A stretch of DNA of 55,304 nucleotides from Balneolaceae bacterium (GCA_016937115.1 JAFGWN010000186.1:1-55304); one strand, 5' to 3'. Positions 11,383 to 33,300 are shown, numbered from the stretch's first letter. The notes: generated from the sequence alone by a model not told the origin. A program made the numbers and translations.

Positions 11383-11424
11383 TTCACCAAACGGTAAAAT
11401 TAATTTAAAACGAACATTTTTTTG

Positions 11425-14400
11425 ATGAAAAAAAAGTTACTGAACGCCCTCCCTTACATCAAATATATTGTGGGTATAGCAGGATTGGTGCTTTTGTATT
11501 CCTGCGGCACCCCACGCCCTTATATCGACTCGGGAAGCGACAGCAAGCCCGATTCCTTACAAGCCAAAAAAATCGATTACCAAATCTTCCTTATTGGAGA
11601 CACGGGAGGGCCGTTTGAGTATAATTCAGAAAATGTAATCCATACGCTGCAGTATCAGCTTGGGCAGGCCGGCGACAGTAGTTCGGTAGTATTCTTGGGT
11701 GATAATATTTACGAGACAGGCCTGAACCCGGATACCACGTATGCGGCCCGCCAAGAGGATGAAAATATTATAAGTTTCCAGCTGCGGGCACTTGCCAGCT
11801 ATGGCGGGCAGTCATTTTTTCTTCCCGGCAACCACGATTGGGAAAATGGAATACGGGGCATTCGTGCGCAGGAAAACTTTATCGAATCTTTTCCTACAAC
11901 CGATGCCCAGTTTGTGCCAAGCAACGGCTGTCCGGGCCCCAATGGATTTGAGCTGGGCAAAAACTGGTATATGATCACACTCGATTCTGATTGGTGGATC
12001 AATCACAGTTTTAAACCTTTTGTAGATACCGAAGGATGTGAATTCAAAACCCGCGCGGAAGTGATGAACAGAATCAACCAAATGGTTGATGAATATTCTG
12101 ACAAGAATATACTGGTAGCCATGCATCATTCGCTTTTCAGTAATGGAATTCATGCCGGGTACTACTCATTTCAAGACTATGTTTTTCCTCTGTCACAGAA
12201 ATTCGAAGGCTTGTACATACCGCTGCCGCTGATCGGATCTATCTACCCGCTTTACCGTAAGTTGGGCCAATCAGGGCAGGATCTTCCCAATGACCGTTAC
12301 CAGGAATTTAAACGACAAATACTGGAAGCCGTTGACGACAAGGAGGATGTCTTTTTTGCGTATGGACATGAACACAGTTTGGGGTTCTATCAGGAAGATA
12401 AGTTGGATGAAACAGCAGCCGGCACCAATCATTTTATTCTTAGTGGATCGGGTAGTAAAACCACCTATGCGCGAACGGGCTATGGAGCTGAATTTGTCTA
12501 TGAACATAAAGGATTTGCGAAACTTGTTTCATATGAAGATGGCCGTATAGTCGTAGAGTTTTGGATTCCCGATAATGAAAATAAACAAGGCAATCTGGTT
12601 TATTACAAAGAGCTGATAGAACCTGAGCCTCTGGTAAGTGATATAGAAAAAATTCAGCGCCGCATGGAAAATGCGGAAAGCCCGACGGACACTATCGCAA
12701 CAGTAGCAGCGGGCCCTCGATATGAAGCGGGTTCAACATTTCGAGCAATATGGGGCGATCATTACCGGGATGCATGGACTACTGAGGTAGACATCCCGGT
12801 ACTGGACTTTAAGAAAAATAAGGGCGGATTGAAGGTAGAAGATGTTTCCGGGGGGAATCAATCGGTAACGGTAATCGTGAAAGATTCGACCGGACAGCGT
12901 TATGTCTTGCGTAGCGTCCAAAAAAATCCCGAAGATGCAGTGCCTGAAGTTCTGCAGCCCACTTTTGTTACCGATATTGCCCAGGATCAAATATCAGCGG
13001 GGCATCCATACGGTAGTATTATTGTAACCGATCTTGCAAATGCGGCCGGTGTATATGATACCAACCCCAAATTGGTATTTGTATCAAAAAAATCGGGTCT
13101 TGATTTTGATATTGGCAATGAAGAAGGAACCCTGTTTACGTTAGAAAATTTTGTAAGTAAAGAATGGTTCAACCGTACGTACGGCAAAAAAGCTACCGAT
13201 ATAATCGACTCGGAGGCCCTCTGGGAGCGGTTGCGAGAGGGAGATGCTGGCACGATTAACCACCGGCAACTTCTGCGTTCTCGTCTGTTTGATATATTTA
13301 TTGGTGACTGGGATCGTCATGAGCGGCAGTGGTTTTGGGCCGAAATACCAACAGATTCTTCATCGGTTTATGAACCTATCCCGCTGGATCGAGACAATGC
13401 CTTCTTTAAACCCGACGGCGCCATACCATGGATTGCCCGGCGCAAATGGGCACTTCGTGAATTCCAGTTGTTTGATGAAGACATACGCGATATGGCTGGA
13501 TTGAATAAAACCGCGGCATTTTTTGATCGCTGGTTTATGAATGAGTTATCCAAAGATGAGTGGGTTTCTATCGCAGAGCAGTTACAACAATCACTGACCG
13601 ATTCTGTTATTGTCCAGGCCGTTGAAGAGTGGCCCGAACCGATCCGGGAATTGAACGGTGAAACGTTCATTAAAAAGTTGAAAGCCCGCCGTGATAAAAT
13701 GCCCGAATTCGCCCGCCGCTATTACAATATACTTTCTGAATACGTTAACGTTTTTGGCAGTGACAAGGCCGAACTGTTTGAAGTTGAGCGCAGAGAGGAC
13801 GGGCAGACGGAGGTGAAGATGTATGCTTTAAATGAAGACACTACTTTAGCCCGAAGTTTAAAGTACAGCCGGTTGGTTTCGCCTGATGCAACCAATGAAA
13901 TACGACTCTACGGCTTTGGGGAAGCCGACCGGTTTCGGGTGCATGGCGATGTTGGTGATGGTATTAAACTGCGCATCATCGGTGGTGACGGAGACGATAT
14001 AATTGACGATGACTCCGGCGTGAAGTCGCTTTTCAAAAAAACATTGGTGTATGATACAAAAGACGGAAGCACCATTAATTCGGCCGGTGAGGTACAGGAT
14101 AATACCAGTAGCGATCCCCGTATTAACAGGTATGAACGCCGGTCATTCGAATATGACCGTACGGCTCCATTGATCACCGCAGGTTACAATTCGTTTGACG
14201 GCGTATTTGTGGGTGGAGGAGTGCTTATTACCAAGCATGGATTCCGTAAAGAACCATTTATGGCGCAACACCGTTTTTCGGGAAAAATAGCTACACAGAC
14301 CTCCGCCTTTAGTGCAGAATATCAGGGTACATTTCCCAATACTATCGGGCCGTTTGATTTAGAGCTTGATATTGATGTCCAGGGGCCTAATTTCTCTTCA

Positions 14401-15210
14401 AGTTATTTTGGGCTGGGCAATGAAACCGACAAGCTTATCGATTCTCAGGAGTTTTACCGCTACAGAATTGATCATATGAAGGCTTCAGTAGGTATTGCCA
14501 ATGAGATTGTCAGCTTGCTAACGGTACGCGGCGGAGTAGGCTACGAATTTTTTGATCCCTCCGAAACTCAGAACCGCTTTGTGACATCATCGCAGTCTGA
14601 TCTTACCAAGTCCGACTTCAACACCGATTCCTTTGCCAATCTTTATGGAGGCTTTACCGTGAGCACGGTAGATGATCCCATGCTACCCCATTACGGTGTG
14701 CGCTTCGATTTTCTGTCGGAATTGAAAGTAGGAATAAATGACCGTAGTGAAACGATTGGCCGTATCAGTTCGGAAAGCAGCTTTTACCATACCCTTGAAG
14801 AACTGAACACTACCCTGGCCATGCGGCTGGGTTTTGCCACAAATATTGGTGATTACAATTTTTTCCAGGCCAACACACTGGGCGGTAGGTCTTTAATAGG
14901 AGGAGGCAGCGGAAATTTACGGGGTTATCTCCGCGACCGGTTTTCGGGGCGGACCAGTTTTTATCATAATACCGAACTGCGGACTAAACTCTTTGATCTG
15001 GAATCGTACTTGTTACCGGCAACCGTAGGTGTGATGGGCTTTTTTGATGAGGGCCGCGTGTGGGTTAACGGTGAAAGTTCGGATGTGTGGCATATCGGTT
15101 ATGGCGGCGGTTTATGGATCAGCCCGTTAGACCAAATAGTGCTTACTACCGGCGTTGCATTGTCTAAAGAGGAAACGTTATTTAATGTGGCACTGGGTTT
15201 TAACTTTTAG
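11425..15210 (+). CDS. Lipoprotein: purple-acid-phosphatase-like metallophosphoesterase + central domain + C-terminal Omp85/surface-antigen barrel (paralog 1)
   Basis: ATG at 11425 (the track uses TTG at 11422). The lipobox-like LLYSC is followed by the five-block PAP signature GDTG / GDNIY / GNHDW / VAMH / GHEH. The C-terminus has NLRGY (Omp85 loop-6 type RGY/F motif) and ends ...FNVALGFNF. Confidence 0.8.
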   Translation: MKKKLLNALPYIKYIVGIAGLVLLYSCGTPRPYIDSGSDSKPDSLQAKKIDYQIFLIGDTGGPFEYNSENVIHTLQYQLGQAGDSSSVVFLGDNIYETGLNPDTTYAARQEDENIISFQLRALASYGGQSFFLPGNHDWENGIRGIRAQENFIESFPTTDAQFVPSNGCPGPNGFELGKNWYMITLDSDWWINHSFKPFVDTEGCEFKTRAEVMNRINQMVDEYSDKNILVAMHHSLFSNGIHAGYYSFQDYVFPLSQKFEGLYIPLPLIGSIYPLYRKLGQSGQDLPNDRYQEFKRQILEAVDDKEDVFFAYGHEHSLGFYQEDKLDETAAGTNHFILSGSGSKTTYARTGYGAEFVYEHKGFAKLVSYEDGRIVVEFWIPDNENKQGNLVYYKELIEPEPLVSDIEKIQRRMENAESPTDTIATVAAGPRYEAGSTFRAIWGDHYRDAWTTEVDIPVLDFKKNKGGLKVEDVSGGNQSVTVIVKDSTGQRYVLRSVQKNPEDAVPEVLQPTFVTDIAQDQISAGHPYGSIIVTDLANAAGVYDTNPKLVFVSKKSGLDFDIGNEEGTLFTLENFVSKEWFNRTYGKKATDIIDSEALWERLREGDAGTINHRQLLRSRLFDIFIGDWDRHERQWFWAEIPTDSSSVYEPIPLDRDNAFFKPDGAIPWIARRKWALREFQLFDEDIRDMAGLNKTAAFFDRWFMNELSKDEWVSIAEQLQQSLTDSVIVQAVEEWPEPIRELNGETFIKKLKARRDKMPEFARRYYNILSEYVNVFGSDKAELFEVERREDGQTEVKMYALNEDTTLARSLKYSRLVSPDATNEIRLYGFGEADRFRVHGDVGDGIKLRIIGGDGDDIIDDDSGVKSLFKKTLVYDTKDGSTINSAGEVQDNTSSDPRINRYERRSFEYDRTAPLITAGYNSFDGVFVGGGVLITKHGFRKEPFMAQHRFSGKIATQTSAFSAEYQGTFPNTIGPFDLELDIDVQGPNFSSSYFGLGNETDKLIDSQEFYRYRIDHMKASVGIANEIVSLLTVRGGVGYEFFDPSETQNRFVTSSQSDLTKSDFNTDSFANLYGGFTVSTVDDPMLPHYGVRFDFLSELKVGINDRSETIGRISSESSFYHTLEELNTTLAMRLGFATNIGDYNFFQANTLGGRSLIGGGSGNLRGYLRDRFSGRTSFYHNTELRTKLFDLESYLLPATVGVMGFFDEGRVWVNGESSDVWHIGYGGGLWISPLDQIVLTTGVALSKEETLFNVALGFNF

Positions 15211-15291
15211 CTTAACAGACTTGCGGAGGCCCTTGAATAGTTACATTTGTCAATTGTAAGTGTATTTCAATTTATTGTCATTAAACCATTT

Positions 15292-18200
15292 ATGGACAAA
15301 AAAACTTTTCTTACGCAAGGTTTTATTGGTGTAATTTGTCTTTTTTTTATTTGGTCTTGCGGCACGCCACGCCCATATATCGAATCGGGAAGTGGCAATA
15401 AGCCCGACTCTATAAAAACCAAGCAGGTTGATCATCAAATATTTTTGATTGGTGATACCGGACGACCCGTACTTGATGGCCGCGATCCCGTACTCGAGAC
15501 GTTGCAGCATCAGCTTGAGCAAGCCGGTGACAGTAGCTCAATCGTGTTTTTGGGCGATAATATTTATAGCTATGGCATGAATCCCGATACAACGATTGAA
15601 GCTAAGCGTGAAGATCAGGCGATAATGAGGCGTACGTTAAGGACGCTGGAAAACTTTACGGGAAAGTCGTTTATGCTTCCCGGGAATCATGACTGGGGGT
15701 ACGGTGTACGCGGGGTCCGTGCGCAGGAGCGTTTCGTGGAAAATTATTCGGGCGTGAATGTACAGTTTTCTCCCGATGACGCATGCCCCGGACCCAATGG
15801 TTTCGATCTGGGCGAAAACTGGTATCTCATCATCCTCGATTCAGAGTGGTGGATCAATCAGAGTTTTCAACTGGTGCCCAATGTTAAAGGATGTGAATTT
15901 AGCACCCGGATCGAAGTGATGAATCAGGTAACGAACCTGGCCGAAGAAAACGACGACAAAAATATTCTGATCTCTTTTCATCATCCGCTTTATAGTAATG
16001 GAAGCCATGGCGGGTTTTATACATTTCGCGATTATGTATTTCCGCTTACTAATTTGTACGAAGGGCTGTATGTTCCTTTACCCTTAATAGGCTCTATATA
16101 TCCGATTTACCGTAAAATCGGCCGGTCACCCCAAGATCAAAACCATCAGCAGTACGAAGAGTTTTCAAGAGAAATTCGGGAAGCGGTAGAAGATATTGAG
16201 AATGTTTTCTTTGCTGCAGGTCACGAGCATAGCCTTGGCTTTTACGAACAGAAAAAGGCAGACGAAAACAAAGATGGAACCGATTACTTTATTTTGAGTG
16301 GATCGGGCAGCAAGCAGTCATATGCGCGTACTGGCTACGGCGCCGAATTTGTATATTCTAACAAGGGATTTGCAAAACTGGTTTCGTACGAAGACGGCTC
16401 CGTTAATGTCGAATTTTGGGTCCCCAAAAATGATACTAATGAAGGCAGGCTCGTCTATTTTAAAAAAATTATTGAACCGGAGCAGAAAATAACCGAAGAA
16501 GAGCACATTGCCTTGCGTCGCGAAAACTATGAGGGAACAGAAGATACTGTAAAGACGCTGCGGGCAGGTCCTGAATATGCTGCCGGTGGATTGCATCGGT
16601 TTGTCTGGGGCGACCATTACCGCGATGCCTGGACTGCAGAAGTGGAAGTTCCGGTCTTTGATCTCGATACCAAGAAAGGTGGGCTGGAAGTTCTGGATGT
16701 TACTGGTGGCGAGCAAACCATAACCATTATCGTGCAGGATTCCAGCAAGCACAAATATGTGATGCGGTCGGTTCAAAAAAATCCGGTTAAGTCGCTGCCG
16801 AGTGTACTGCAGGAAACATTTGCATCTGATGTGGCCAAAGACCAGGTTTCGGCTTCGCATCCGTATGGGGCTATGCTTGTGCCACCCCTTTCTAAAGCTG
16901 CAGGTGTGTATAGTACCAATCCCGAATACGGCTATATTTCTAAAAAGTCAGGGATAAAGATGGACTTGGGCAACCGCGAAGGAGCACTGGTTACGTTCGA
17001 AGAATTTGTCAGCACGGACTGGTTCAACCGGAAGTATCAAAAACAGGCCGTTGATATGGTTGATTCCGATGAGCTGTGGGAGCGCATGCGTCAGGAAGGG
17101 CAAGCCAGGGTTGATGAAAAGCAACTCGTACGATCCCGTTTGTTTGATATATTTATTGGTGACTGGGATCGCCACGAAGGGCAGTGGTTTTGGGCCGAAA
17201 CCAAAACCGATTCTATTTCGGTTTACGAGCCTATTCCCATCGACCGTGACAATGCGTTCTTTAAAAGTGATGGCGCCATTCCGTGGATCGGGCGCCGAAA
17301 ATGGGCCCTGCGCAAGTTTCAGCTTTTTGATAATGACATCCGTGATATGGCAGGGCTAAATTTTAACGCCCGTTTTTTTGACCGCTGGTTCATGAATGAA
17401 CTTCCCAAAGAAAACTGGATTTCTATTGCCGAAGATATGCAGCAAGCCCTTACCGACTCGGTTATAAATGAAGCGATCAGCCAGTGGCCGAAACCGATAC
17501 AGCAAATCAACGGTGATATCTTCAGAGAAAAGTTAAAACAACGCCGGGATAAACTTACCGAATTTGCCCTCCGCTATTACGATATTTTATCGGAGGAGGT
17601 AAATGTATACGGGAGCGATAAAGCCGACCGGTTTGAGGTGGTGCGCAGCCCCAATGGGCAGACGAGCGTCATCATTTATGAAAAAATTGAAGATGTCCCC
17701 GAAGGTGAACAGAAGCAGTTGTTTGCCCGGACGTTTAAAGTGGGAGAAACCGATGAAATTCGGCTGTTTGGTTTTGGTGATAACGACGATTTTGACATAA
17801 CCGGAAGCAGCGATAAGGCAATGACGATTCGTGTGGTTGGCGGAGAGGGCCGGGATGTTGTCAATGATAAATCAGATGTCGACGGAAGGTCCGAAGAAAC
17901 GCTGGTGTACGACACCGATTACGGTTCAACCATTATTTCCAGCGGGGAAGTGCAGTCTAAAACCTCGAATGATCCCCGGATCAACCGTTTTGATAATCGA
18001 TCATTCGAGTATAACTATGTTGCTCCGCTTGTTACAGCCGGATATAATAGTGATGATGGCATATTTCTGGGCGGTGGTGCGCTTATCAGAACATATGGTT
18101 TCCGGAAAGATCCGTTTGCCGCAAAACACCGGATTACAGTCAAGCGCGCACTTAAAACATCATCATTTAGCGCTGCTTATAACGGGGTCTTTAGTGAAGA

Positions 18201-19065
18201 GGCAGGTCCGCTGGATCTGGAACTGGATGCTGAAGTAAAAGCGCCGGATTTCGTTTCAAACTATTTTGGGCTGGGCAATGAAACCGAGCGCGGCACAAAG
18301 GATTACAGTTTTTACGATTATAAAATTGATAATGCGGAATTGTCGGCCGGTGTAGCCGAAGACTTCGAAGAGCTGCTGTTTATCCACGGAGATATTGGGT
18401 ATGAGTATTTCCGTCCTATTAAAATGCCGGACAGATTTATTACCTCTCCGGCATCGGGGCTTACGGATGATGTTTTTTCAGCGCATCACTATGCTACATT
18501 GGGAGCGGGATTACAAGTAACCACCGTCGATGAAACCCTTTTCCCTCACTACGGAGCAGAATTTGTGGCGTCAGGCAAGCTAAATGTGGGGCTTAATGGC
18601 AGGAGTGAAACATTCACCCGCCTGAAAAGTGAGATAAAGGGATATTATACACTGGAAAGTATTACAACCACCCTTGCTTCGCGGCTTGGTTTTGCAACGA
18701 ATATCGGCGATTACGACTTTTTCCAGGCCAACACACTGGGCGGACAACGGGTCTTTAGTGGCTCCGGTAACCTAAGGGGGTTTGCCCGAAAGCGGTTTTC
18801 AGGGCGTACCAGCGTATATCACAATACAGAACTGCGTACCAAGGTTGGAGACTTCAGTTCGTACCTGTTCCCCGCTACGTTTGGTATTACGGCCTTTTTC
18901 GACCAGGGACGGGTGTGGAAAAGCAATGAGCGTTCCCGCCTGTGGCATGTAGGATACGGCGGCGGTATATGGATCAGTCCGCTGGAGTATTTCATTTTGA
19001 ATACAAGTTATGCGGTCTCAAAAGAAGATGAGTTTATATCAGTAACACTGGGTTTTACGTTTTAA
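15292..19065 (+). CDS. Lipoprotein: PAP-like metallophosphoesterase + central domain + Omp85-type barrel (paralog 2)
   Basis: The ATG at 15292 (MDKKTF...) is preferred over the track's TTG at 15247. It has lipobox FIWSC, the same five motifs (GDTG, GDNIY, GNHDW, ISFH, GHEH) and a C-terminus with NLRGF ending ...SVTLGFTF. It is collinear with paralog 1 along the whole length. Confidence 0.8.
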   Translation: MDKKTFLTQGFIGVICLFFIWSCGTPRPYIESGSGNKPDSIKTKQVDHQIFLIGDTGRPVLDGRDPVLETLQHQLEQAGDSSSIVFLGDNIYSYGMNPDTTIEAKREDQAIMRRTLRTLENFTGKSFMLPGNHDWGYGVRGVRAQERFVENYSGVNVQFSPDDACPGPNGFDLGENWYLIILDSEWWINQSFQLVPNVKGCEFSTRIEVMNQVTNLAEENDDKNILISFHHPLYSNGSHGGFYTFRDYVFPLTNLYEGLYVPLPLIGSIYPIYRKIGRSPQDQNHQQYEEFSREIREAVEDIENVFFAAGHEHSLGFYEQKKADENKDGTDYFILSGSGSKQSYARTGYGAEFVYSNKGFAKLVSYEDGSVNVEFWVPKNDTNEGRLVYFKKIIEPEQKITEEEHIALRRENYEGTEDTVKTLRAGPEYAAGGLHRFVWGDHYRDAWTAEVEVPVFDLDTKKGGLEVLDVTGGEQTITIIVQDSSKHKYVMRSVQKNPVKSLPSVLQETFASDVAKDQVSASHPYGAMLVPPLSKAAGVYSTNPEYGYISKKSGIKMDLGNREGALVTFEEFVSTDWFNRKYQKQAVDMVDSDELWERMRQEGQARVDEKQLVRSRLFDIFIGDWDRHEGQWFWAETKTDSISVYEPIPIDRDNAFFKSDGAIPWIGRRKWALRKFQLFDNDIRDMAGLNFNARFFDRWFMNELPKENWISIAEDMQQALTDSVINEAISQWPKPIQQINGDIFREKLKQRRDKLTEFALRYYDILSEEVNVYGSDKADRFEVVRSPNGQTSVIIYEKIEDVPEGEQKQLFARTFKVGETDEIRLFGFGDNDDFDITGSSDKAMTIRVVGGEGRDVVNDKSDVDGRSEETLVYDTDYGSTIISSGEVQSKTSNDPRINRFDNRSFEYNYVAPLVTAGYNSDDGIFLGGGALIRTYGFRKDPFAAKHRITVKRALKTSSFSAAYNGVFSEEAGPLDLELDAEVKAPDFVSNYFGLGNETERGTKDYSFYDYKIDNAELSAGVAEDFEELLFIHGDIGYEYFRPIKMPDRFITSPASGLTDDVFSAHHYATLGAGLQVTTVDETLFPHYGAEFVASGKLNVGLNGRSETFTRLKSEIKGYYTLESITTTLASRLGFATNIGDYDFFQANTLGGQRVFSGSGNLRGFARKRFSGRTSVYHNTELRTKVGDFSSYLFPATFGITAFFDQGRVWKSNERSRLWHVGYGGGIWISPLEYFILNTSYAVSKEDEFISVTLGFTF

Positions 19066-20096: not shown

Positions 20097-20597
20097 ATGA
20101 AAACAAAGCTTACAATAATTTCCGTATTTATCTTGGTTTTAATTTTTAGCGTGGCGCCGATGGCGCAGGCGCAAAGTGAAGATGTCTCTTCCAACCTGGA
20201 AGTGTATAGAATTACTATGGTCAACGGGGAGGAAGTAGTAGAGCAGGTTACGACTATTTCACCCGGAGATACACTTGAGTATCGATTGACCTATACCAAT
20301 AACTTGTCCGACGCCATTTCTGATTTGCAGCCGATTCTTCCTATTCCACAAGGGGTACAATATCTGGAAAATACAGCAATACCCGAACTTGAAGAAGCCA
20401 GCCTGGATGCAGAGGGGAATACTTTTCAATCTTTACCCATTCAGCGAGAAGAAACACTTGAAAGCGGTCTGGTGGTAGAGCGTGAAGTGCCAGCCCGTGA
20501 GTATCGTCGCCTGCGATGGAGGGTTCCTGCCCTTGAATCACAGGCGTCGGTTATGCTAAGGGCACGCGTATGGGTTATAAACAGATCCAACCTGTAG
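20097..20597 (+). CDS. Small secreted single DUF11/CARDB-like Ig-fold protein
   Basis: 166 aa with signal peptide ...APMAQAQ. It has one DUF11-type core (PGDTLEYRLTYTNNLSDAISDLQPILPIPQGVQYLENTA ... LRWRVPALESQASVMLRARVWV). The ORF ends directly after the strand that internal domains of the neighbouring genes follow with two more strands. Confidence 0.7.
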   Translation: MKTKLTIISVFILVLIFSVAPMAQAQSEDVSSNLEVYRITMVNGEEVVEQVTTISPGDTLEYRLTYTNNLSDAISDLQPILPIPQGVQYLENTAIPELEEASLDAEGNTFQSLPIQREETLESGLVVEREVPAREYRRLRWRVPALESQASVMLRARVWVINRSNL

Positions 20598-20739: not shown

Positions 20740-23382
20740 ATGGAAAAACAAATGACCACAATTACACGTACGTTGTGTGGCAAATTGTTTGGATTTTTCA
20801 CCCTTCTTATGGTGGTGGGGCTAACATTTATGCTGGCACCGAATAGTGCTCTGGCACAAACTGTCCCGCAAGCCGGTGAAGAAATCGAAAACCAGGCAAA
20901 TGCTACATATACGGATAATAATGGGAATCCAAGGACTGCACAGTCAAACACGGTAACAACCGTAGTTCAGCAAGTGGCAGCGGTAACCATTACCAATGGG
21001 GTAACTAAAAATGTTAGTCCCGGCGGATATGTAGACTTCAGCCATACCATTACCAATAATGGTAACGGTAACGACACTTTTGCCTTAGTTGCTACACCAA
21101 CGTCGGCAAATTTCACCTTTACAGATATAAAAATTTATCCCGATCAGGGAGGTGGAGTACCAGATCTTAATAACGAAATTACAGGTTCAACACCTACCAT
21201 AGGTGCAGGGCAAACATACAATATCGTTGTACGGGCTACGGTGCCGAGTTCTGCAGTAGACGGGGAATCTGAATCTATTGATATTACAGCTACCAGTGAC
21301 TTTGACACAGCTGAGTCAGCATCAACCGACCCGGATGATGTAGCTCAGGTAGAAGAAGATGCAGTGATCACGGTTACCAAAGATTACCTCGATAGCGGAG
21401 GCAATGTAACGACCGGGGGCGATGTAGGAGAAACGGTAACGGTACGCTTTAGTATCAGTAACACCGGTAACGCCGATGCTACCAATCTTTCAGTTACTGA
21501 TCCGCTGCCCACGGGGTTTGTTTATCAGCCCGGAACAGCCGTTTACCAAAGTGCAAGCCGTACGGATACCGACGGCGACAGTGACGGCTATAAATACAAT
21601 GCAACCAATCAGACCATCACGCTTACATCAGGAACCCTTGCCTCGGGTGCAACTGCGTCTTTAACCTTTGAGGTGGTTGTTAATACCGGTACGGAAGGCA
21701 CCACGATTTCGAACACCGGTACCTATAACCATGATGATTTGGGTACTGCGGAGACCACAAACCCGGCCCTGTTTAATGTTAATGAAAGATATGGCATTGA
21801 GACGGTGGATAATGTGGGAGCTGATGATGATGTGATTGAAGCAGGACCGGTGAATCAGGGTGCTGTTGTTGATTTCGTCAACCGGTTTGAAAATACAGGT
21901 ACGGCTTCTGATTCATACAAAATTACGCTTTCTGGGCAGAGTAACTATCCGAATGGTACAACGTTTACACTGCACCGGACAGACGGAAGCGGTACGGTAA
22001 CCAGCCAGATTACAGCAAATGGCGGTGGTGACTTTATAATAGGACCGATTGCTGAAGGTGCGCAATTCGAAGTTGTTGTACGGGCAGACTTGCCTAACAA
22101 TGCTTCAGGCGGACCATATAACTTGACGAAAACACTAACGTCTGTTAACGATCTATCCCAGTCGGCTGTTTTCACTGATCGATTAACGTCGGTTACTGCC
22201 AGTACGGTTGATGTTACGAATGATGAATCACTTGATACCAATTCGAGTGCAGCTGGTAATGGTGTCCAACCCACCGGTGAAGCCAGTGCCGTTACAACCA
22301 ATACAACAGACCCGAACACTACAACCAGCTTCACGCTGTTTATCAATAATACCAGCGGCGTGTCTGATACCTATAATCTGGCAGCAAGTACCGATAACAC
22401 CTTTGGAAGTGTCACGCTGCCTTCCGGATGGTCGGTAGAGTTCCGGAACACAGGGGGGACACCGATCACAAGTACCGGATCAATTCCTGCGGGTGGAGCG
22501 GTAGAAGTTACCGCCGTAGTTACGGTACCATCAAATGCAACTCCGGGAGCGCAAAGTATCTATTTCCGTGCACGATCGGGTGCTACGGGTGCCGCGGACG
22601 TGAAGCATGATGCTGTTAATGTTAATGCCGTTCGTAGCATAACATTGGTTAGCGACCAAGGTGACGATGTGGTGCCGGGTGGTTCTGTTACCTATACACA
22701 CACCTTAACAAATACAGGTAACGTCATTGAAAATGATTCCGGCACACCATTACAGGTGAGCCTGGCGCATACGCAGGCCAGTGGCTTCCAGTCAGTGGTA
22801 TTCCTCGATGTGAATAATGACGGCGTTATTGATGGCGGTGATACGCAGATAACCGGTGCCGGTGGTACCGTTACTTTACCCGGCGGTACATTAACAAGCG
22901 GTGCTTCGGTTCAGCTTCTGGTACGCGTTAGTGCAGGGACAGGTGTTACCGACGGAACGGTTAACAATACCACACTTACCGTACAAGGTACTGGTGTAAA
23001 CACGGTTAGCAATACCGACAATACTGAGGTGGTAACCGGTAATCTTGAGATCGTAAAAACACAGTCATTGTCACCAACCGGACCTTTTAGCGGCGATAAC
23101 GCCGGCGATCCGGATTTACAGGCCGATCCCGGTGATATTATTTATTACCGCATTGTGGTAACAAATAATGGCTCGGCCCCGGTTACAAACATTACGCTTA
23201 CCGATGACGTGCCCGACTTCACAACTTATGAAGTAGCGGCAACGGTATCAGGCGACGGTTCTCCTTCGATTGACAGCCAGCCCTCTGTGGGCGGTACTGG
23301 AATCATAACGGTGAGCGTAGCCCAGCTTAATGCCGGTCAATCCTTTACCATTGAATTCGCTGTGGAAATCAACAGCAATTAA
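20740..23382 (+). CDS. Secreted six-domain DUF11/CARDB-like repeat protein (candidate fibre shaft subunit)
   Basis: 880 aa with signal peptide ...NSALAQ. It has six repeats of the pattern x-I/V-x-K..G..v.Y.h.v.N.G(N)..a....v.D.LP.G (for example FSISNTGNADATNLSVTDPLPTGFVY and YRIVVTNNGSAPVTNITLTDDVPDFTTY). Confidence 0.85.
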   Translation: MEKQMTTITRTLCGKLFGFFTLLMVVGLTFMLAPNSALAQTVPQAGEEIENQANATYTDNNGNPRTAQSNTVTTVVQQVAAVTITNGVTKNVSPGGYVDFSHTITNNGNGNDTFALVATPTSANFTFTDIKIYPDQGGGVPDLNNEITGSTPTIGAGQTYNIVVRATVPSSAVDGESESIDITATSDFDTAESASTDPDDVAQVEEDAVITVTKDYLDSGGNVTTGGDVGETVTVRFSISNTGNADATNLSVTDPLPTGFVYQPGTAVYQSASRTDTDGDSDGYKYNATNQTITLTSGTLASGATASLTFEVVVNTGTEGTTISNTGTYNHDDLGTAETTNPALFNVNERYGIETVDNVGADDDVIEAGPVNQGAVVDFVNRFENTGTASDSYKITLSGQSNYPNGTTFTLHRTDGSGTVTSQITANGGGDFIIGPIAEGAQFEVVVRADLPNNASGGPYNLTKTLTSVNDLSQSAVFTDRLTSVTASTVDVTNDESLDTNSSAAGNGVQPTGEASAVTTNTTDPNTTTSFTLFINNTSGVSDTYNLAASTDNTFGSVTLPSGWSVEFRNTGGTPITSTGSIPAGGAVEVTAVVTVPSNATPGAQSIYFRARSGATGAADVKHDAVNVNAVRSITLVSDQGDDVVPGGSVTYTHTLTNTGNVIENDSGTPLQVSLAHTQASGFQSVVFLDVNNDGVIDGGDTQITGAGGTVTLPGGTLTSGASVQLLVRVSAGTGVTDGTVNNTTLTVQGTGVNTVSNTDNTEVVTGNLEIVKTQSLSPTGPFSGDNAGDPDLQADPGDIIYYRIVVTNNGSAPVTNITLTDDVPDFTTYEVAATVSGDGSPSIDSQPSVGGTGIITVSVAQLNAGQSFTIEFAVEINSN

Positions 23383-23435: not shown

Positions 23436-23463
23436 ATAAAAAATAATCATCCGGCTTTTTTTG

Positions 23464-26400
23464 ATGCGTAACCTGTTTTCACATATCTTATTTGTTGCAC
23501 TTGTACTGATTGCCTTGCCGGCTGTTGGTCAACAAGTGCCGCGGGCAGGTACGTCTATTGATAACCAGGCCAGTGGGTATCATTTTTTCCCTTCCTATTC
23601 CGATACCGTCTTTAAAAACTCCAATACCGTAAGTCTCATCGTACAGGAGGCAGAAAACATTAACCTTGTTCCCAATCACCGTGAGAAAATACGTATTGGG
23701 CAGGTAACAAGGTTTACCCATACGCTTTCAAATACCGGCAATGTACCGACAACCGTTACCATTACGGCCGAAAATATAATGGGTGATGATTTTGATTTGG
23801 ATAACATAATTTTATCTACGGTTGAAGAGGCATCAAAAATGGTATCCAATATCGGAATGGCTGGAGCATCGCAGGCTGCTTCTAAAGAAATAACGGTAGA
23901 ACTGGAACCCGGAGAGGTATTTGATTTCACTATTTCCCTGGTTGTGCCCAATGAGGCAAAGGCCCGTGATTTGGGTAAGGTTAAAATAGAAGCAAAGACC
24001 AGCAGCGGGAAACTTATTCTCAGTAATACGGATATTCTGGAAGTGCTTGAAGGACCCCGGGTAGAAGTGGTAAAGAAAGCAGCAGAAAGTACCGGAAAGC
24101 AGGGAGGAGAAATTACCTATCTTATTACCGGCAGTAACGAAGGGGATCAAACAGCCCGAACCTTTAATATCCAGGTTAATAATGTTCCCTTGCAAAAGGT
24201 AATTTTACGTGATCCGATTCCAGCTAATACGAGTTTTTTGCGGACATTAAGCACCGAAGGCGGGATGACGCTGTATCATACAATAGATGATCCTGAATTC
24301 ACCTATTCGACTACACTGCCGGATGATTTATCCCGGGTTGACGAATTTGCCGTAGCATACGATTCCATCGCACCGGGCCAGAAATTTGAGGCGCAGTTTG
24401 TGGTGGCCATTAATGAAAATGCTGCCGGACTTATTAAGAATATTGCCCAGGTTGACTATCGCGACCCTATTGATGACGAGCAGCAAAGTACAACGGCAGA
24501 AACAAACCTCGTGGAAGAGGTTTTACCTGAATATGAAGCAGAACTCGATTATTATACCGATGGTAACTACAAGACCGTTAGCCGCGCTGCCCGAATTTCT
24601 GGCCCGTTATTTTTACAAGCCAATGCTGCTGCCTGCAATGCGAGTAGTGCCGTCAAAGATACCACCGTTATCACTTTCAAATCGCGGGATACGGGAGACA
24701 TAGAAGAACTAACCGGGATAGAGACAGGGCATAATACGGGCTACTTTCGGGTTATGCCCAATGCACCACTGCGCGATGCGGCAAAGTTTACGGTACGCAA
24801 AAGAAATAACATTATAGAAACCGTAGGCGATGATGTTATCACAGCTACATTGCCGGCCTGCAGTGAAAACCAGGAGGCGGTAACGACACAGATTCACATT
24901 TCTCCATACGGCGTTATTTTTAACAGCGAAGATGGCGAGCCCGTTGCAAATACATCTATTACTCTTATTGATGTTACCGGAGAAGGTAACGGCGGTAATC
25001 CAGGGGCCCCGGCTACTGTATATAATGAGCAGGGCACCGAAAAGATTGAAAATACCCAGGAGACGGGAGAAGACGGAGAGTTTGAGTTTCCTTATGTGCA
25101 GCCCAGCACCTATCGTATTGAGGTAGAGCCTCCAACCGGTTGGCGTTTTGCTTCCATTGTTGAACCGCAGGATCTGCCCGGTAACCGGAAAGTTGACGAG
25201 TGGGCTTCGTACGGAAGGGAATTCGGGGTTACTGAACCCGGGCCGGTTGGAGTTGACGTACCGGTAGATCCCGCAACGGATGGCATTCTATTCATCGAAA
25301 AAACGGTATCAACTTCCGGGGCAGAAGTCGGTGATTTCGTCACCTATCAAATTACAGTGGCAAACAACGCATCTACGGTTGTTTCTGATGTTCGTGTTGA
25401 GGATACCTTGCCGTTTGGCTTCCGTTACGAAAAAGGAACCGCACGGCGGGATGAAAAACCCATTGCGGATCCCGATGGAGGGAAGGGACCATCACTCAGT
25501 TTTATGCTGGGCGATATTCAGGGCAATAGCTCGGTTACGCTTACCTACCGTGTACTGCTTGGCACCGGCGCGTTAAACGGCGATGGTACGAACCGCGCTG
25601 TAGCCGTAAGTAATGAAGGACTACAAATCACAAGTAACGAAGCCCAGAGTAAAGTTGAGGTACGCGGTGGCGTATTCACCGATAAAGGGTACATAATCGG
25701 TAAAGTATTTGCCGATGTAAACGAAAATGATGTGCAGGATCCCGGAGAGCCCGGCGTTCCCGGCGTTCGTCTTTATCTCGAAAATGGTTCATTCGTTATT
25801 ACCGATAGTGAAGGTAAATATACGTTTTATGGCATCAATCCCAATAAACACACGATAAAAGTTGACAACTATTCGTTGCCACAGGGCAGCCGGCTTGGTG
25901 TGCTCGATAACCGGCATGCCGGAGACCCTTCCACCCGGTTTGTCGATTTGAAAAATGGGGAACTGCACCGTGCCGATTTTGCTATTTGTGACCTCACGGA
26001 AGCGGCAAAACGTGAAATAGAAGACCGCCGCAAACAATTTAATATGGTAGTCAGCGACGAAGTGGGAACAACGCTTGAGCGAAATTTTTCGACCGATGCT
26101 CAAGACCCAACACGTGCTGTTCGCCGGGCGCAGGCAAGCGGCGTGGTTGACGGCGTCAAGCTCCCGGGTTTTCGTAAGCAAAAAAATGGTAGCTCCGCAT
26201 TGGCCCAATCTTCATCTGCTATCCTCAATGATACGGCAGCAGTTGAGCAGATAACACTTGAGGATGCTATGCTGGGTGAAAAGGCAGAAATTGGGTTTAT
26301 CGGTCTGCAGGATAACGATACCCTGCAAGCTGCACAGACAAGAATTTGGATAAAGGGCCGAAGCAGTACAGCACTTTCTCTTAGCGTTAATGGGGAGAAA

Positions 26401-29400
26401 ATTGGAGAAGATCGCATTAGTAAACGAAGCAAGCTCACGACACAAAAACTCCAGGCGCAAGAATATATCGGTGTTAATCTTACACCCGGTAAAAATACAC
26501 TTACCCTTACGGCAATCGATCCGTTTGGTAACGAGCGGGGACGGAAGCAGATAATGGTTTTTGCTCCCGGCCATATCCACAAAATAAAGCTCACAACGCC
26601 TGTTAATGACGTGCCGGCCGATGGTATTTCAACAGCCGTCGTAAAAGTTTGGTTGCAAGATAAAGAAGGCGTTGCCGTCAATGCAAAAACACCGGTTACC
26701 CTTGATGTCTCAATCGGTGAATGGTTGGTGAAAGATCTGGATTCGTCAACACCCGGTACCCAAACCTATGTTACCGGTGGGGAAGCAGAATTTGAGCTGC
26801 AATCGACTATCGAACCACAGGATGCTGATGTTCGCGTGTCAATCGGGGTGATGGAAGCAGAAACCGTGGTAAGTTTCTTGCCCGATCTTCGTCCCCTTAT
26901 TGCCGCAGGTATCATAGAAGGGACAATTCGATTAAACGAAGGTGCCAGTATTGTTCCGGCCCGCAGCGCCGACGGTTTTGAGCGGGAGCTAAAGTCGCTT
27001 TCATACAGCACCGATGATTATACGGCTGATGCCCGTGCGGCCTTTTTCCTGAAAGGGAAGATTAAAGGAAATATGCTGTTGACGGCGGGTTTTGATTCTG
27101 AAAAAGATGATGACCGCCTGTTTCGTGATATTCAGCCCGATGAGTTTTACCCTGTCTATGGTGAATCATCGGTAAAGGGATACGATGCACAGTCAACCGG
27201 ACGGCTGTACGTGCGGGTTGATCACAAGAAGACCTATGCTCTTTATGGCGATTTTGTAACGCAGGAGCGGCATCTGGCCAAAAGCCTTGGTGAATACAAC
27301 CGTACCCAGACAGGGATTAAACTGCATTACGAAAAAGACTGGGCACGTATCAATGTGTTTGGCAGCCAGGCGACTTCGTTACAGCGCATCGATGAGTTTC
27401 GGGGGCAGGGTATTTCGGGACCGTACGAACTGCAATTCGATAATATTTTGATTAACAGCGAACAGGTTGAGATCATAACGCGCGATCGCAATCAGCCATC
27501 TATTATTCTCGAACGGGAAAAACTGGTGCGTTTCCGCGATTATGTAATAGAACCGTTTACGGGCAATATTCTCTTTAAAACAGCTGTGCCGAGTGTTGAT
27601 CCAAAGCTGAATCCTGTTTTTATCCGGGTGACCTACGAAGTGGAAAGCGGGGCGGAAGATTACTTGATCGGCGGAGCTGATGGACAGATCAAGATTACGG
27701 ATTTCTTTGAAGTGGGCGGCTCATTTGTAGAAGATCGCAATCCAGAAGACAACTACCGTCTTAAAAGTATCAACTCCACATTACGACTTGGTGAAAATAC
27801 GGTATTGATTGGGGAAGCAGCCGAAAGCACGACCGAGCTTGAAGGTACTGGCCGGGGCGGACGCATTGAATTGCAGCATCGTGGCCAAATCGTCGATGGC
27901 CGTTTGTATGCCGGCCAAACCGACGAAGATTTTGTCAACCGCGCGTCTCAGCTTGGTCAGGGGCGGACCGAAGCCGGCGCACTCGGATCCATTAAACTGA
28001 CGAACTCAACTAATTTAAAAGGAGAGTTTCTATACAGCAGCAACGACACGCTGGGTACCAATACCACCGGCGGTTTGCTTAACATTCAGCAGCGTATTAC
28101 GAACGATATCCGTGCTGAAGTAGGGGTTCGTTACTCTAAGCAAAACAGATCGCAGTCGGGGATATCGGGTGATGAAGATATCACCAATAAAAATATTCGC
28201 GGTAAATTAACGGTGGGTGTTCCCAAGGTAAAAGGAGCAACTATTTATGGAGAGTACGAGCAGGATATTAATGAAAGCGACCGGAAGCTTATTGCTGTTG
28301 GCGGCGATTACCAGCTTAAAAATCGAGGTAGAATCTATGCGCGTCACGAGTTTATATCCAGTGCGCTCGGCCAGTATACGTTGAACAGTTCCACAGAACG
28401 CCAAAATACGGTTGTTGGTATTGATGCCAATTATATGCAAAACGGCCAGGTGTACAGCGAGTATCGTATGGATGATGCGTTTGACGGCCGCAATGCACAA
28501 GCGGCGATCGGGCTGCGCAATCGTTTTGAAATTCGTGAAGGGTTCGGCATCAATGCCGGGTTGGAGCGTATCTTTAGTTTAACGGGTGATCCACTGAATG
28601 AAGGGACAGCTATATCAGCCGGTGTTGACTATACTGCAAATCCGCTTTGGAAAGGCACCGCCCGGGCCGAAGCTCGTTTCAGCAATAATGGCGCCAGTTA
28701 TTTGAGCACGCTGGGCTACGGTCGAAAAATAGATCCCAACTGGACGTTTTTAGGTAAGAATATATTCAGCCTGCAAGCATCGTCAAATCCCGGAACCGCG
28801 GATCGTATCCAGCAGCGTCTGCGGTTTGGTTTTGCGTATCGTGAAACAGCTCAAAACCGCTGGGACGGGCTGGGCCGCTACGAATTAAAGTACGAAAAGA
28901 ATGGACAGTTTGGCGGGGACTATAGTCGGTTGGTTCATATTTTCTCGACTAATGTGAACTATCATCCAAGTGCCGACTGGACACACACTGGTCGTTTTGC
29001 AGCAAAAAAAGTAGCAGAATCATCAGCCGAGTTCGATTCAAAAAGTTTGACGATGCTTTTGAGTGCCCGCAGCATTCACGACATCACCCGAAAGTTAGAC
29101 GGCGGTATTAATGCAAGTATGATGACAGATGCCGGTTTTAGCAGCCAAAATTATGGCGTAGGGGTTGAGCTGGGATACATTGTACACCGTAACCTGCGTC
29201 TGGCTATCGGATTTAATGTATTTGGATTTGAAGATCGTGACCTGGCTGCATCCAGCTTTACCCGAAAAGGCGTATATCTTGGATTCAGTTACAAGTTTGA
29301 TGAGCGTCTGTTCCGCGGTCTTATGCCTGATGAAGACAAGAATGATTACCTGTATGCCACTTGCGATGAGTGTGCTGAACCGTCGACAAAGGCTGAAGCA

Positions 29401-30345: not shown

Positions 30346-33300
30346 GATTAGAAAGCAAAACATATTGCCTGTTTTTAAGCTTCTTGCTGGGAATGATATT
30401 CCTGAATGTTGCCAGCATTATCGCCCAGCCAGCCGGGTACGATTATTACAAGCAGATTACCATCCAGGCTTCGCAGGTGCCTTCTACGCAAACCAATTTC
30501 CCGGTATTAATTAGTATTACAGATCCGGATCTGGCGGCTAATGTGCAGAATACCAATGGCTATGATATTATTTTTTCTTCGGATACTAACGGCAATAATA
30601 TACTGAATCACCAGATTGAGAGCTACAATGCAGCAACCGGAACGTTGGTGGCATGGGTAGGGGTACCGAGCCTGAGCGGAAGCAGCAATACATCGATCTA
30701 CATGTTTTATGGAAACTCAAGTGTCTCTGCCAATCCTTCAACAACGGCTACCTGGAGCAGCGAATATACCAGTGTGTACCATCTAAATAATTTTGCAGAT
30801 GGTACTGCCACCGGAAATAACGGTACGAATAATGGTTCCATCAATGCAGCAGGTAAAATTGGAAGTGCCCGGCAATTTGACGGTAGCAATGATTATATAC
30901 AATTAAGCCAGAATTTGGCGCAGGTGTTAGCCGGAAATGGTACGGTATCAGCATGGATAAAAACAAGTCAGGTTGGTAGCAATACTATTTGGGAGGCTCC
31001 GGGTTTAACAGGTATTGAAGAGAGCGGGGGCGGCAACGATATTTTCTATGGATTTATTGATGGTTCGGGTCGGGTAGGAGCAGCAGCCGGGAACGGGACT
31101 GCAGCTAAAAGCTCGAATGCGTTGAATAATAATCAGTGGCACCATGTGGTGTTTACCCGGAATGCGTCAAGTGGGCAGATACTCACATACGTTAATGGAA
31201 TAATTCGTGGAAATGTAACCTCAGAAACAGGGAATAAAACGAATGCCTTTAACAGTATTGGCCGAATTGAAGATACCGGAGGATCTCCTGAATATTACCA
31301 GGGAGTAATTGATGAGTTTCGGGTTTCTAATCAGATTTTCTCTCAAAATCGCATTCAAACAGAATACAATAACCAAAATAACCCCTCTTCCTTTTATTCA
31401 GTTGGCAGTCAGCAGTCTGTTGATGATGTGGCGCCCGCTGCCCCGCAAAATGTTACGGCAACAGCAGTGGCCGGCGGTGATATCGAAATTTCATTTGATG
31501 ATGTGGATGAGACCGGCAGCGGCGTTACTTCTTATTCTGTAAAACGCTCAACCTTGCAAGGCGGACCTTATAGTCAGGTTAGTACCGTTACCGATAATGA
31601 AAGTGCAACTTACAACTACAGCGACAATACTGCTTCCAACGGGACTACCTATTACTATGTGGTTACGGCGGTGGATGCAGCCGGCAATGAAAGTAATACT
31701 TCTGCTGAAGTTTCGGCCACGGCTGATGGTACCGCACCAACAGTCGAGACTGTCACAGTTAATGGCCAGAACTTGCAAATTGATTACAGCGAGATACTTA
31801 ATAATGGTTCCGTTCCAGCGCCAAGTGATTTTAATATACAGGTGAATGGCAGTTCCCGAACAGTAACCAATGTTGCTATAAACGGCGATAAGGTAGATCT
31901 CACACTCAGTCCGTCGGTTGTACAGGGAGATAATGTGTCCGGAAGCTACACGGCAGGAAGTAATCCTATTGAAGACCAGGCAGGAAATGATGCAGCCAAC
32001 TTAAGCGGTCCTGTAACCAATAATACAAGTGACAGTACACCCCCCAATGCTCCGCAAAATATGACGGCAACAGCCATCATGGGTGGTGATATAGCGATAT
32101 CCTTCGATGATGTGGACGAAGTTTCCGGTACGGGGGTAAATTCGTATTCAGTGAAGCGTTCTGCAAACCCGGGCGGCCCGTACAGTCAGGTTGGAACCGT
32201 CGCAGATGATGAGAGCACCAGTTACACGTATACCGACAATACCGTTTCGGATGGCACTACCTATTATTATGTGGTAACAGCCATTGATGCCGCCACGAAT
32301 GAAAGCAGTAATTCATCCGAAGTCTCGGCTACCGCCGATGGTACGGGCCCAACGTTAGAAACAGCCACAGTTAATAGCACCATCCTGCAGCTTGATTATG
32401 ACGAGCAATTAAACACCGGTTCTGTCCCCGTGGCAGGTGCCTACGCAGTACAGGTGAATAGCAGTTCCCAAAGCATTTCAAACGTTGGCATTAATGGTGA
32501 CAAGGTGAATATTACACTGGTTTCCGGGGTAAGTCCGGGAGACAACATCACGATAAGTTATACGGCCGGAGTAAATCCAGTTGAAGATATCGTTGGAAAT
32601 CCGGCGGCGAATTTCTCTAATCAAACCGTAATAAATAATTCCGATAATACCCCCCCAATACTTAACAGTATTACTGTTAACAGCAGTAGTTTAAAGTTGG
32701 ATTATAACGAAACCTTAGATTTAGGTTCGGTACCGGCTGTCGGTGATTATACAGTTTGGGTGAATGGCAATCCGCGGACAATTACAAATGTACAGCTCAA
32801 TAATATCCGGGTAAATCTGACGCTCAGCCCGGCCGTAGTGAGCGGTGATAATGTTCAGGTCGATTACACGGCGGGTGCCAATCCGGTACAGGATGCGGCC
32901 GGAAATAACGTGGCGAATTTTACCAATCAAACCGCTGCCAATAATACCTTCAGCAATTCCGGCTTTGGTCCGGATCCCTGCCCGATCGTCAATGGCCAGG
33001 ATGCTGCATGGGCATGTTTTGATGGCATCAACGGGGGGACCACCATGTCGGCTTTGGTAGGTAACCTTGAGATTGCCACGGTTGATGCCGTTGGACAGAC
33101 AACTTTTGCGCCCAATGCGTTGCAGCAGTGGGCCAGCGGTGTCTTCTCGGGTGATCAGTACAATGGCCCGCAGGCCAATCCCATCGGTGCCAGTGGCAAC
33201 GCTTCCTCATTTGATATTACCATCCCATCGGGTGTACCATCGGATGCCATCATCTTTGCGCTGAACCGGCTGCGGCCTTCGTCCGGGAATACGAGCTACA

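Follow-up and report, generated by a model that had tools for sequence, protein, structure and literature searches.

A stand-alone truncated DUF11-type protein as a candidate acceptor for the N-terminal hairpins of its neighbours in a conserved bacterial gene cassette

INTRODUCTION

The DUF11 domain family was renamed CLIPPER in 2025, when a crystal structure (9IFR, residues 708–828 of Acinetobacter silvestris B9T28_05395) revealed a nine-strand CnaA-like sandwich closed by an intramolecular isopeptide bond (PMC12617251). The isopeptide triad comprises Lys-715 on the first strand, Asn-806 near the end of the domain (strand 8) and Asp-748 as the presumed catalyst, and is not present in all DUF11 domains (PMC12617251). 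Here we analyse a gene for a 166-aa protein at positions 20097–20597 of a 55,304-nt stretch of DNA from a Balneolaceae bacterium (GCA_016937115.1 JAFGWN010000186.1:1-55304; hereafter the window). It is the first gene of a cassette rich in CLIPPER-repeat surface proteins, and we propose, with somewhat less than even confidence, that its product is a non-covalent acceptor of the donor hairpins of its neighbours, working mainly as a periplasmic holdase. The 166-aa protein shares the common PGD..Y...Y.N / ..LP.G core of the CLIPPER domains, but it lacks strands 8 and 9 together with the Asn, has neither the catalytic Asp nor a conserved Lys, carries an insertion of about 37 aa, and stands alone rather than forming one repeat of a stalk.

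The SpyCatcher/SpyTag and DogCatcher/DogTag pairs are laboratory splits of Gram-positive adhesin domains, and the EQ mutant of SpyCatcher is non-reactive. The second pair is an engineered split isopeptide domain (PMC8878318). The cassette resembles these pairs in that a domain body carries the Lys and the catalytic acid while a separate peptide carries the Asn; by analogy, the small protein would be the counterpart of a Catcher that has lost catalysis and still binds its Tag. It differs in that the split is natural, involves CLIPPER (CnaA-like) domains and lies between Gram-negative gene products, and in that the reaction is suggested here by residue conservation.

A second point of comparison is the chaperone–usher pilus (PMC9046445, PMC10673952), whose operon likewise encodes a small periplasmic immunoglobulin (Ig)-like protein, a repeating subunit whose Ig fold is incomplete and which bears its donor at the N-terminus, a large outer-membrane protein and a donor-less adhesin. 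However, chaperones such as PapD and FimC have two Ig domains and insert a donor strand (G1) into the groove, whereas the 166-aa protein has one domain and could only accept; moreover, the chaperone–usher donor is a single strand, whereas the donor of the cassette is a two-strand hairpin and the joints are probably covalent. No sequence relation to the chaperone–usher proteins was found, there being no match to a Pfam usher, chaperone or fimbrial family and none to an NCBIfam chaperone family.

A third comparison is PamT, from the Pam pili of candidate phyla radiation (CPR) bacteria: it too has a signal peptide and one truncated Ig-like domain, lacks a donor strand, and is encoded alongside donor-strand pilins in one operon (bioRxiv 10.64898/2026.03.03.709456). 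The Pam system differs in that its PapD-like chaperones are separate proteins and that it has neither an outer membrane nor an isopeptide triad, and the tip role of PamT is itself a prediction. The 166-aa protein shows the features of such an acceptor-only tip or cap (a signal peptide, an incomplete Ig-type fold, no donor extension and donor-bearing neighbours), the analogy being one of function only. Two further fibres deserve mention. The archaeal thread built of Saci_0406 (PMC9715654) combines donor-strand complementation with intermolecular isopeptide bonds, as we propose here, and the type V pili of Bacteroidota (PMC13655056) are donor-strand fibres whose pilins are lipoproteins activated by proteolysis. 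Both differ from the cassette in folds and subunit sizes, and a stand-alone inactive acceptor is reported for neither. Our literature searches found no report of a stand-alone dead acceptor and no publication on the cassette.

RESULTS

The 166-aa protein is an exported, truncated DUF11-type domain

The open reading frame runs from an ATG at 20097 to a TAG that is included in the end coordinate, and it is supported by homologues; features given below lie on the plus strand unless stated otherwise. Its N-terminus, MKTKLTIISVFILVLIFSVAPMAQA followed by QSE, reads as a type I signal peptide of 25 aa (20097–20171), with AQA at residues 23–25 and predicted cleavage between AQA and QS. There is no Cys anywhere in the protein, so it has no lipobox and is not a lipoprotein. 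The mature part is Cys-free in 335 of 351 family members, and the type I (AxA) pattern is found in most. Apart from the signal peptide, the protein contains no barrel and no sorting domain.

To place the limits of the domain we used a 118-position DUF11 profile, built with jackhmmer from the internal repeats of the 3334-aa protein encoded in the same cassette. All four internal repeats of that protein cover positions 1–118, and the DUF11-type internal copies in the neighbouring 880-aa and 2294-aa proteins extend to positions 113–115. The 166-aa protein covers positions 7–84 (aa 47–160, E = 1e-22). The last domains of the 880-aa and 3334-aa proteins cover positions 12–86 and 2–86, and all three chains end within a few residues of position 84–86. 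What is missing from these three C-terminal domains is the final stretch of ∼32 profile positions, which forms the terminal hairpin and carries the isopeptide Asn. Alignment with hhalign gave the same picture: the last residue of the small protein shares a column with the end of the 880-aa protein, and lies ∼31 columns before the end of an internal domain. It indicated no special closeness to the acceptor domain, the small family scoring 96% against the acceptor domain of the 880-aa protein and 97.6% against internal domain 2. A profile of the hairpin itself matched the N-terminus of the 880-aa protein (E = 7e-20) and, weakly but at the expected place, that of the 2294-aa protein; it had no match in the 166-aa or the 3334-aa protein.

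The original prediction had described the gene as encoding a signal peptide plus one DUF11-type sandwich that lacks the terminal strands of the internal domains and has no N-terminal hairpin of its own. The reading frame, the profile match ending at 84 of 118, the end column shared with the 880-aa protein and the blank hairpin profile bear this out. The domain is indeed a truncated one; it is not, though, a plain copy of the domains next door, as it has its own insertion of ∼37 aa.

The relation to DUF11 is a distant one. The protein has no Pfam match at E ≤ 0.01 and reaches 19.5 bits (aa 52–94) against a cut-off of 24 for TIGR01451, the DUF11 repeat of NCBIfam, while some homologues (P0002, P0004, P0007) carry a precomputed PF01345 match. 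In the reverse direction, the small-family profile matches the neighbours' domains over its positions ∼50–100 only. From these sequence comparisons the protein is homologous to DUF11/CLIPPER but divergent; it falls short of the curated score, of the complete nine-strand fold and of the isopeptide triad.

The mature protein can be divided into four parts. Strand A, NLEVYRITMV (aa 33–42; 20193–20222), corresponds to a strand at residues 30–42 in the AlphaFold2 (AF2) model. The DUF11/CLIPPER core follows at aa 47–95 (20235–20381; PGDTLEYRLTYTNN...LPIPQG), as defined by the DUF11 profile matches. The family-specific insertion occupies aa 96–133 (20382–20495), with AF2 strands at 100–102, 116–120 and 126–130, and the last strands, EYRRLRW..L..ASVMLRARVWV, span aa 134–160 (20496–20576), the stop coming 6 aa later. 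Within the small family the insertion is conserved, with the motifs ASLD, F..P(L/I).R, DG and VP..EYRxLRW; profile comparison showed it to be absent from the neighbours' domains. The start of the insertion, ASLD(G), is loosely like the ATYxDxxG of the donor hairpins described below, and may fill the groove as an internal mimic of them.

Between them, the neighbouring proteins carry the missing hairpin and the triad residues

Residues K715, D748 and N806 of 9IFR correspond to about positions 6, 40 and 95 of the DUF11 profile, and the socket and plug residues of the cassette proteins map onto them. The gene after the small one (20740–23382) encodes the 880-aa protein, which consists of a signal peptide, a donor hairpin, about seven Ig-like domains and a truncated C-terminal acceptor domain. 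The hairpin (aa 41–79; 20860–20976; ..AGEEIENQANATYTDNNGN..SNTVTTVV), located with the hairpin profile, contains N51, the candidate isopeptide Asn. The acceptor domain (aa 765–880; 23032–23379), which ends at profile position 86, is live in the sense that it retains both K773 and D822. AF2 modelled the full protein with a mean predicted local distance difference test score (pLDDT) of 89 and the hairpin with 89–95; Foldseek returned only generic tandem-Ig matches for it.

The next gene (23461–30345) encodes the 2294-aa protein, with a donor hairpin at aa 24–62 (23530–23646; ..AGTSIDNQASGY..NSNTVSLIV; N35), where the hairpin profile matched weakly, Ig-like domains, a putative barrel and an OmpA domain at aa 2020–2108. 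The 3334-aa adhesin-like protein (30342–40346) contains DUF2341, LamG, SWM, GEVED and DUF11 repeats. It has no N-terminal hairpin, and its C-terminal domain (aa 3236–3334; 40047–40343; profile end 86) is a live acceptor that keeps both Lys and Asp, in the motifs LSLIK and IADNVP, while lacking the hairpin. The window thus holds two donors, the 880-aa and 2294-aa proteins, and three acceptors, the 166-aa, 880-aa and 3334-aa proteins.

These residues are strongly conserved. Across 38 genome loci the second and third gene products begin, in their mature form, with a donor hairpin of the consensus ..PPAxTxIGNQASATYxDxxG....TSNTVxTxV, in which the Asn is replaced only in Glaciimonas. In the family of the 880-aa protein (72 sequences), I49, N51, A53, A55, D59, S69 and N70 of the hairpin are invariant, the socket Lys (K773, motif L.I.K.Q) is present in 70 and the socket Asp (D822) in 71, and the chain ends 1–3 residues past the last strand in 70. 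A Catcher-like acceptor is accordingly found in the C-terminal domains of the 880-aa and 3334-aa proteins (K773/D822; LSLIK/IADNVP), alongside hairpins carrying N51 and N35, and is not found in the 166-aa protein. Judged from this conservation, the 880-aa and 3334-aa sockets and the hairpins are probably joined head-to-tail and locked by a spontaneous intermolecular isopeptide bond. The premise that the small protein is acceptor-only also holds up, given that it is truncated like the C-termini of its neighbours and that the 880-aa and 2294-aa proteins begin with the missing hairpin in every homologous locus examined.

The Glaciimonas case is a separate observation. Both hairpins of Glaciimonas immobilis (locus L040, 11433–20405) have another residue in place of the Asn (..LGTKATATY.. 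and ..LSVQAKASY..), while its acceptors retain Lys and Asp; the joints of this species may be non-covalent.

The small family has lost the catalytic residue

Strand A of the 166-aa protein (NLEVYRIT) is similar to its counterpart in the acceptor domain of the 880-aa protein (NLEIVKTQ), but the site of the reactive Lys is R38 here, and over 131 sequences it is Lys in 59%, Arg in 27% and another residue in 14%. The Asp site is L81, within the LPIP motif, and is Leu, Ile, Val or Met in all 131 sequences. Because the Asp site is lost and the Lys is not conserved, the small protein would be a socket that is unable to form the isopeptide bond.

Our first search yielded 37 stand-alone close homologues of 151–200 aa, those with names coming from Balneolaceae (Fodinibius salinus and metagenome-assembled genomes, MAGs). 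An exhaustive profile search gave 4028 matches with E ≤ 1e-3, 292 of them with E ≤ 1e-30. Among the top 150 representative matches, 130 were stand-alone proteins (<260 aa) aligned essentially end to end; giant DUF11 proteins match the small-family profile in the core only. This is a large unnamed family of stand-alone proteins of ∼160 aa found in at least five phyla, and none of the homologues has an informative name, all being called 'hypothetical', 'DUF11 domain-containing' or 'TIGR01451 repeat'.

In a 77-sequence alignment (A2), Y62, N68, P82, P84, P114 and W141 are invariant, and L34, E46, P56, G57, A101, S102, G124, Y136, R137 and R157 are at least 90% conserved. The hallmark motif of the family is EYRxLRW, and a conserved surface particular to it is formed by R117, E135, Y136, R137, R140, W141 and R157. 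All members end soon after the ARVxV strand, with short, low-complexity tails, and a hairpin-like tail was seen in none of the small-family members examined. The relative conservation of the three cassette proteins is similar and does not discriminate between roles. In a mean-field direct coupling analysis of 354 family sequences, artefacts from conserved columns and gaps prevailed, and the 116–120/126–130 hairpin was the only feature recovered.

With the family alignment as input, AF2 predicts a single domain of twelve strands with a structured part of ∼131 aa, pLDDT ∼97 over aa 30–160 and a predicted template modelling (TM) score of 0.76. A Foldseek comparison of this model with the Protein Data Bank (PDB) gave no convincing neighbour (best E = 0.016, TM ≤ 0.44); the matches were a mixture of Cna/RrgB/Als-type adhesin domains, CBM2 and SlyD. 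A PDB sequence search with the family profile returned 9IFR only, at E = 0.11 and over the N-terminal core. A chaperone of the PapD/FimC type was considered separately and excluded, the model being a single ∼131-aa domain without PapD_N or PapD_C matches; no PapD-type chain was present among the 50 Foldseek matches listed.

The small gene belongs to a conserved cassette

The cassette generally begins with the small gene, followed by a gene for ∼900 aa and one for a protein of ∼2000 aa that probably includes a barrel; OmpA is fused in some cassettes and separate in others. In Fodinibius and the Balneolaceae MAGs, genes for the small protein, for ∼880–920 aa, for ∼2300–2400 aa with OmpA and for a giant adhesin follow in succession. 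We regard the cassette as a unit because the same four genes recur while the flanking genes differ.

A genome scan was run on one genome per species with alignment A1 as the query, A2 being too diverse for this purpose. It found full-length relatives in Balneolaceae, Burkholderiales, Hydrogenophaga, Glaciimonas, Steroidobacteraceae, Nevskia, Alcanivorax, Zavarzinia, Acidobacteriaceae, a deltaproteobacterial MAG and Gemmatimonadota, and a small-family relative is also present in a Verrucomicrobiota MAG. In all scanned lineages a gene for ∼870–980 aa and then one for ∼1800–2400 aa come after the small gene, all three on one strand. Overall, the cassette ranges over Balneolaceae, Beta- and Gammaproteobacteria (carriers including Acinetobacter nectaris, Lysobacter, Leucothrix and Alcanivorax), Alphaproteobacteria (Zavarzinia), Acidobacteriota, Gemmatimonadota, Verrucomicrobiota and others. 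Species that carry it and can be cultured are Fodinibius salinus, Gracilimonas mengyeensis, Acinetobacter nectaris and Alcanivorax hongdengensis.

Synteny was also assessed independently of the small gene, by a metagenome scan seeded with the N-terminal region of the second gene and restricted to loci with at least 1.1 kb of upstream sequence (n = 68). A full-length small gene lies directly upstream on the same strand in 66 of the 68 loci, or 66 of 67 when one contig (L120) that is cut inside the cassette is set aside. Absence of the gene from otherwise conserved loci, which the original prediction had named as a finding that would tell against its proposed role, is thus not what the independently found cassettes show; the synteny of the small gene with the hairpin-bearing genes is obligate.

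The OmpA domain is arranged in two ways. In Balneolaceae it is fused to the third protein, whereas in Proteobacteria and Gemmatimonadota the third protein is without OmpA and the next gene encodes an OmpA-family (lipo)protein, as in L044 (19818–20378), L046 (19233–20363), L045 (12343–13785) and L048 (9606–11069). This alternation between fused and separate forms is evidence that peptidoglycan anchoring belongs to the system. In the 2294-aa protein the OmpA domain is preceded by a stretch of ∼800 aa (aa ∼1150–1946; nt ∼26908–29298) that follows the Ig-like domains, has no Pfam or PDB sequence match and ends in GFSYKF, reminiscent of the final strand of an outer-membrane barrel. From its sequence pattern we regard this stretch as a putative barrel of that kind, which could serve the cassette as its platform for translocation and anchoring.

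In the window, 142 nt lie between the small gene and the 880-aa gene, a gap in which a terminator scan found no terminator-like site, and the 2294-aa and 3334-aa genes overlap by 4 nt (30342–30345) in an ATGA-type junction. The overlap and the terminator-free gap are consistent with one transcript. In a search of sequencing runs the locus was absent from the single metatranscriptome listed (X13), and only DNA metagenomes hold it.

DISCUSSION

A possible role as a non-covalent acceptor

How might a socket that cannot react serve a system whose other sockets probably do? In the mechanism that we propose, Sec would export the 166-aa protein as a truncated CLIPPER/DUF11 domain, the socket part without its plug. 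The missing plug would be supplied in trans by the mature N-termini of the 880-aa and 2294-aa proteins, and the joints at the 880-aa and 3334-aa sockets would be locked by an isopeptide bond, as in a natural split Catcher/Tag pair, to give a fibre of the form adhesin – (880)n – barrel/OmpA anchor. If a subunit has a plug and a socket that are both reactive, any encounter with another would start an irreversible polymerisation. The small protein, acting as a decoy socket, would take up the hairpins reversibly in the periplasm and so block premature locking. At the barrel/OmpA platform in the outer membrane a live socket would then take its place, with the covalent bond rendering the exchange one-way. 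The truncation point, the hairpins, the triad kept by the partners and lost by the small family, and the synteny are observed; what we infer in this scheme is complementation in trans and its covalent lock, the uptake of hairpins by the small protein, its residence in the periplasm and the final hand-over.

That the small protein acts mainly as a holdase for the hairpins is slightly favoured over a place at the distal end of the fibre as a cap. The systematic loss of the catalytic residue in the small family argues for this, and so does the fact that the Balneolaceae operon already encodes a live acceptor-only adhesin of 3334 aa, which makes a second tip redundant. A third argument comes from Acinetobacter nectaris (L149, 1–18824), where two divergent cassettes (176-901-1988 aa and 886-893-1325+ aa) have one small gene between them; on the minus strand of this locus both second-type paralogues carry donor hairpins.

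Several points weigh against this reading. The conserved 37-aa insertion could replace the missing hairpin and close the sandwich. In chaperone–usher and Pam systems the chaperones donate strands and the acceptor-only subunits are tips (Pam: bioRxiv 10.64898/2026.03.03.709456), so that by analogy with them a cap is at least as natural; and the minimal cassettes of Proteobacteria contain no other acceptor-only protein. One 26% GC (guanine plus cytosine) marine contig (L080, 2500–8970) has the second and third genes without a small gene upstream. It is the only such locus found, and the genes upstream of it are on the opposite strand. The Foldseek search, as described above, found no convincing structural neighbour, and the isopeptide bond in trans is suggested by conservation.

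The distal cap or initiator

The nearest rival, which we rate as rather unlikely, is that the small protein is the first subunit of the fibre, takes the hairpin of the first ∼900-aa subunit non-covalently and sits at the distal end, in the manner of the FimH/PapG pilin domain or the predicted tip pilin PamT. The acceptor-only architecture seen in the profile limits and the blank hairpin profile suits a cap as it does a holdase. In the minimal cassettes of Proteobacteria and Gemmatimonadota there are two donors and two acceptors, the small protein being one of the latter, and a separate acceptor-only adhesin was not seen in the minimal-cassette stretches examined. PamT offers a precedent as a single truncated Ig-like domain without a donor strand that is predicted to be a tip (bioRxiv 10.64898/2026.03.03.709456), and the insertion has a conserved cluster of Arg, Tyr and Trp that might provide a surface for binding a ligand or the platform. 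However, the Asp is lost in 131 of 131 small-family sequences while the triad of the 880-aa family is conserved to at least 97%, which would be odd for a permanent load-bearing tip, and in Balneolaceae the cassettes already encode a live acceptor-only adhesin. Nor does the conservation of the small protein, which is about equal to that of the other cassette proteins, give any sign either way of a variable, exposed tip.

A self-contained accessory domain

It is also possible, but in our judgement unlikely, that the insertion completes the sandwich, so that no hairpin is taken up and the protein has another role in the cassette, for example in docking or priming the barrel protein, in binding peptidoglycan or a polysaccharide, or as a small matrix or surface protein. 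The AF2 model, a compact twelve-strand domain with pLDDT ∼97 in the absence of any partner, is what one would expect here, and its structured ∼131 aa exceed the 118 positions of a complete DUF11 domain. No other part of the protein is as family-specific or as well conserved as the insertion (R117, E135, Y136, R137, R140, W141, R157), its ASLDG is loosely like the ATYxDxxG of the hairpin, and the small-family profile matches the neighbours over positions 50–100 only. Set against this, the protein ends within two profile positions of the acceptor domains of both partners, the acceptor-type strand A motif is kept (Lys or Arg in 86%), no family member has a terminal hairpin of its own, and the synteny with hairpin-bearing genes is strict.

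Finally, the absence of a Pfam match and the TIGR01451 score below its cut-off might suggest a chance open reading frame or a decayed fragment of a large DUF11 gene. We discard this explanation as highly improbable: full-length homologues that stand alone number in the hundreds, they have a conserved length, signal peptides and invariant residues in common, and the gene keeps its place in the operon across phyla.

Implications

If the 166-aa protein does act as a non-covalent acceptor of the hairpins, reactive plugs would be kept covered by an inactive socket on their way to the site of assembly, and a self-locking covalent polymerisation would thereby be controlled; this is a kind of chaperone so far shown for no known pilus system. 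The most far-reaching version of the proposal, that the cassette represents an undescribed and widespread class of Gram-negative envelope fibre with split-CLIPPER covalent joints, in which the 166-aa protein is the dedicated acceptor-type chaperone and donor-strand exchange runs with reversed polarity, is doubtful as a whole. Characterising the cassette would add a route of fibre or tether assembly for Gram-negative envelopes, and could provide protein engineering with Catcher/Tag pairs of natural origin and a non-reactive binder to match. If instead the protein is a closed accessory domain, the finding reduces to an annotated conserved family of unknown role.

Other genes of the window

Upstream of the cassette, two adjacent genes (11422–15210 and 15247–19065) encode proteins of ∼1270 aa with C-terminal Omp85-superfamily barrels, the second also having a metallophosphatase domain. 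This Omp85-barrel pair does not lie beside the cassette in the other genomes examined. Further upstream are tandem membrane proteins of the TLC (ATP/ADP transporter)/MFS-like type (6630–8144 and 8196–10949), the second fused to HEAT repeats, and, on the minus strand at 197–3451, a tricorn-type S41 protease.

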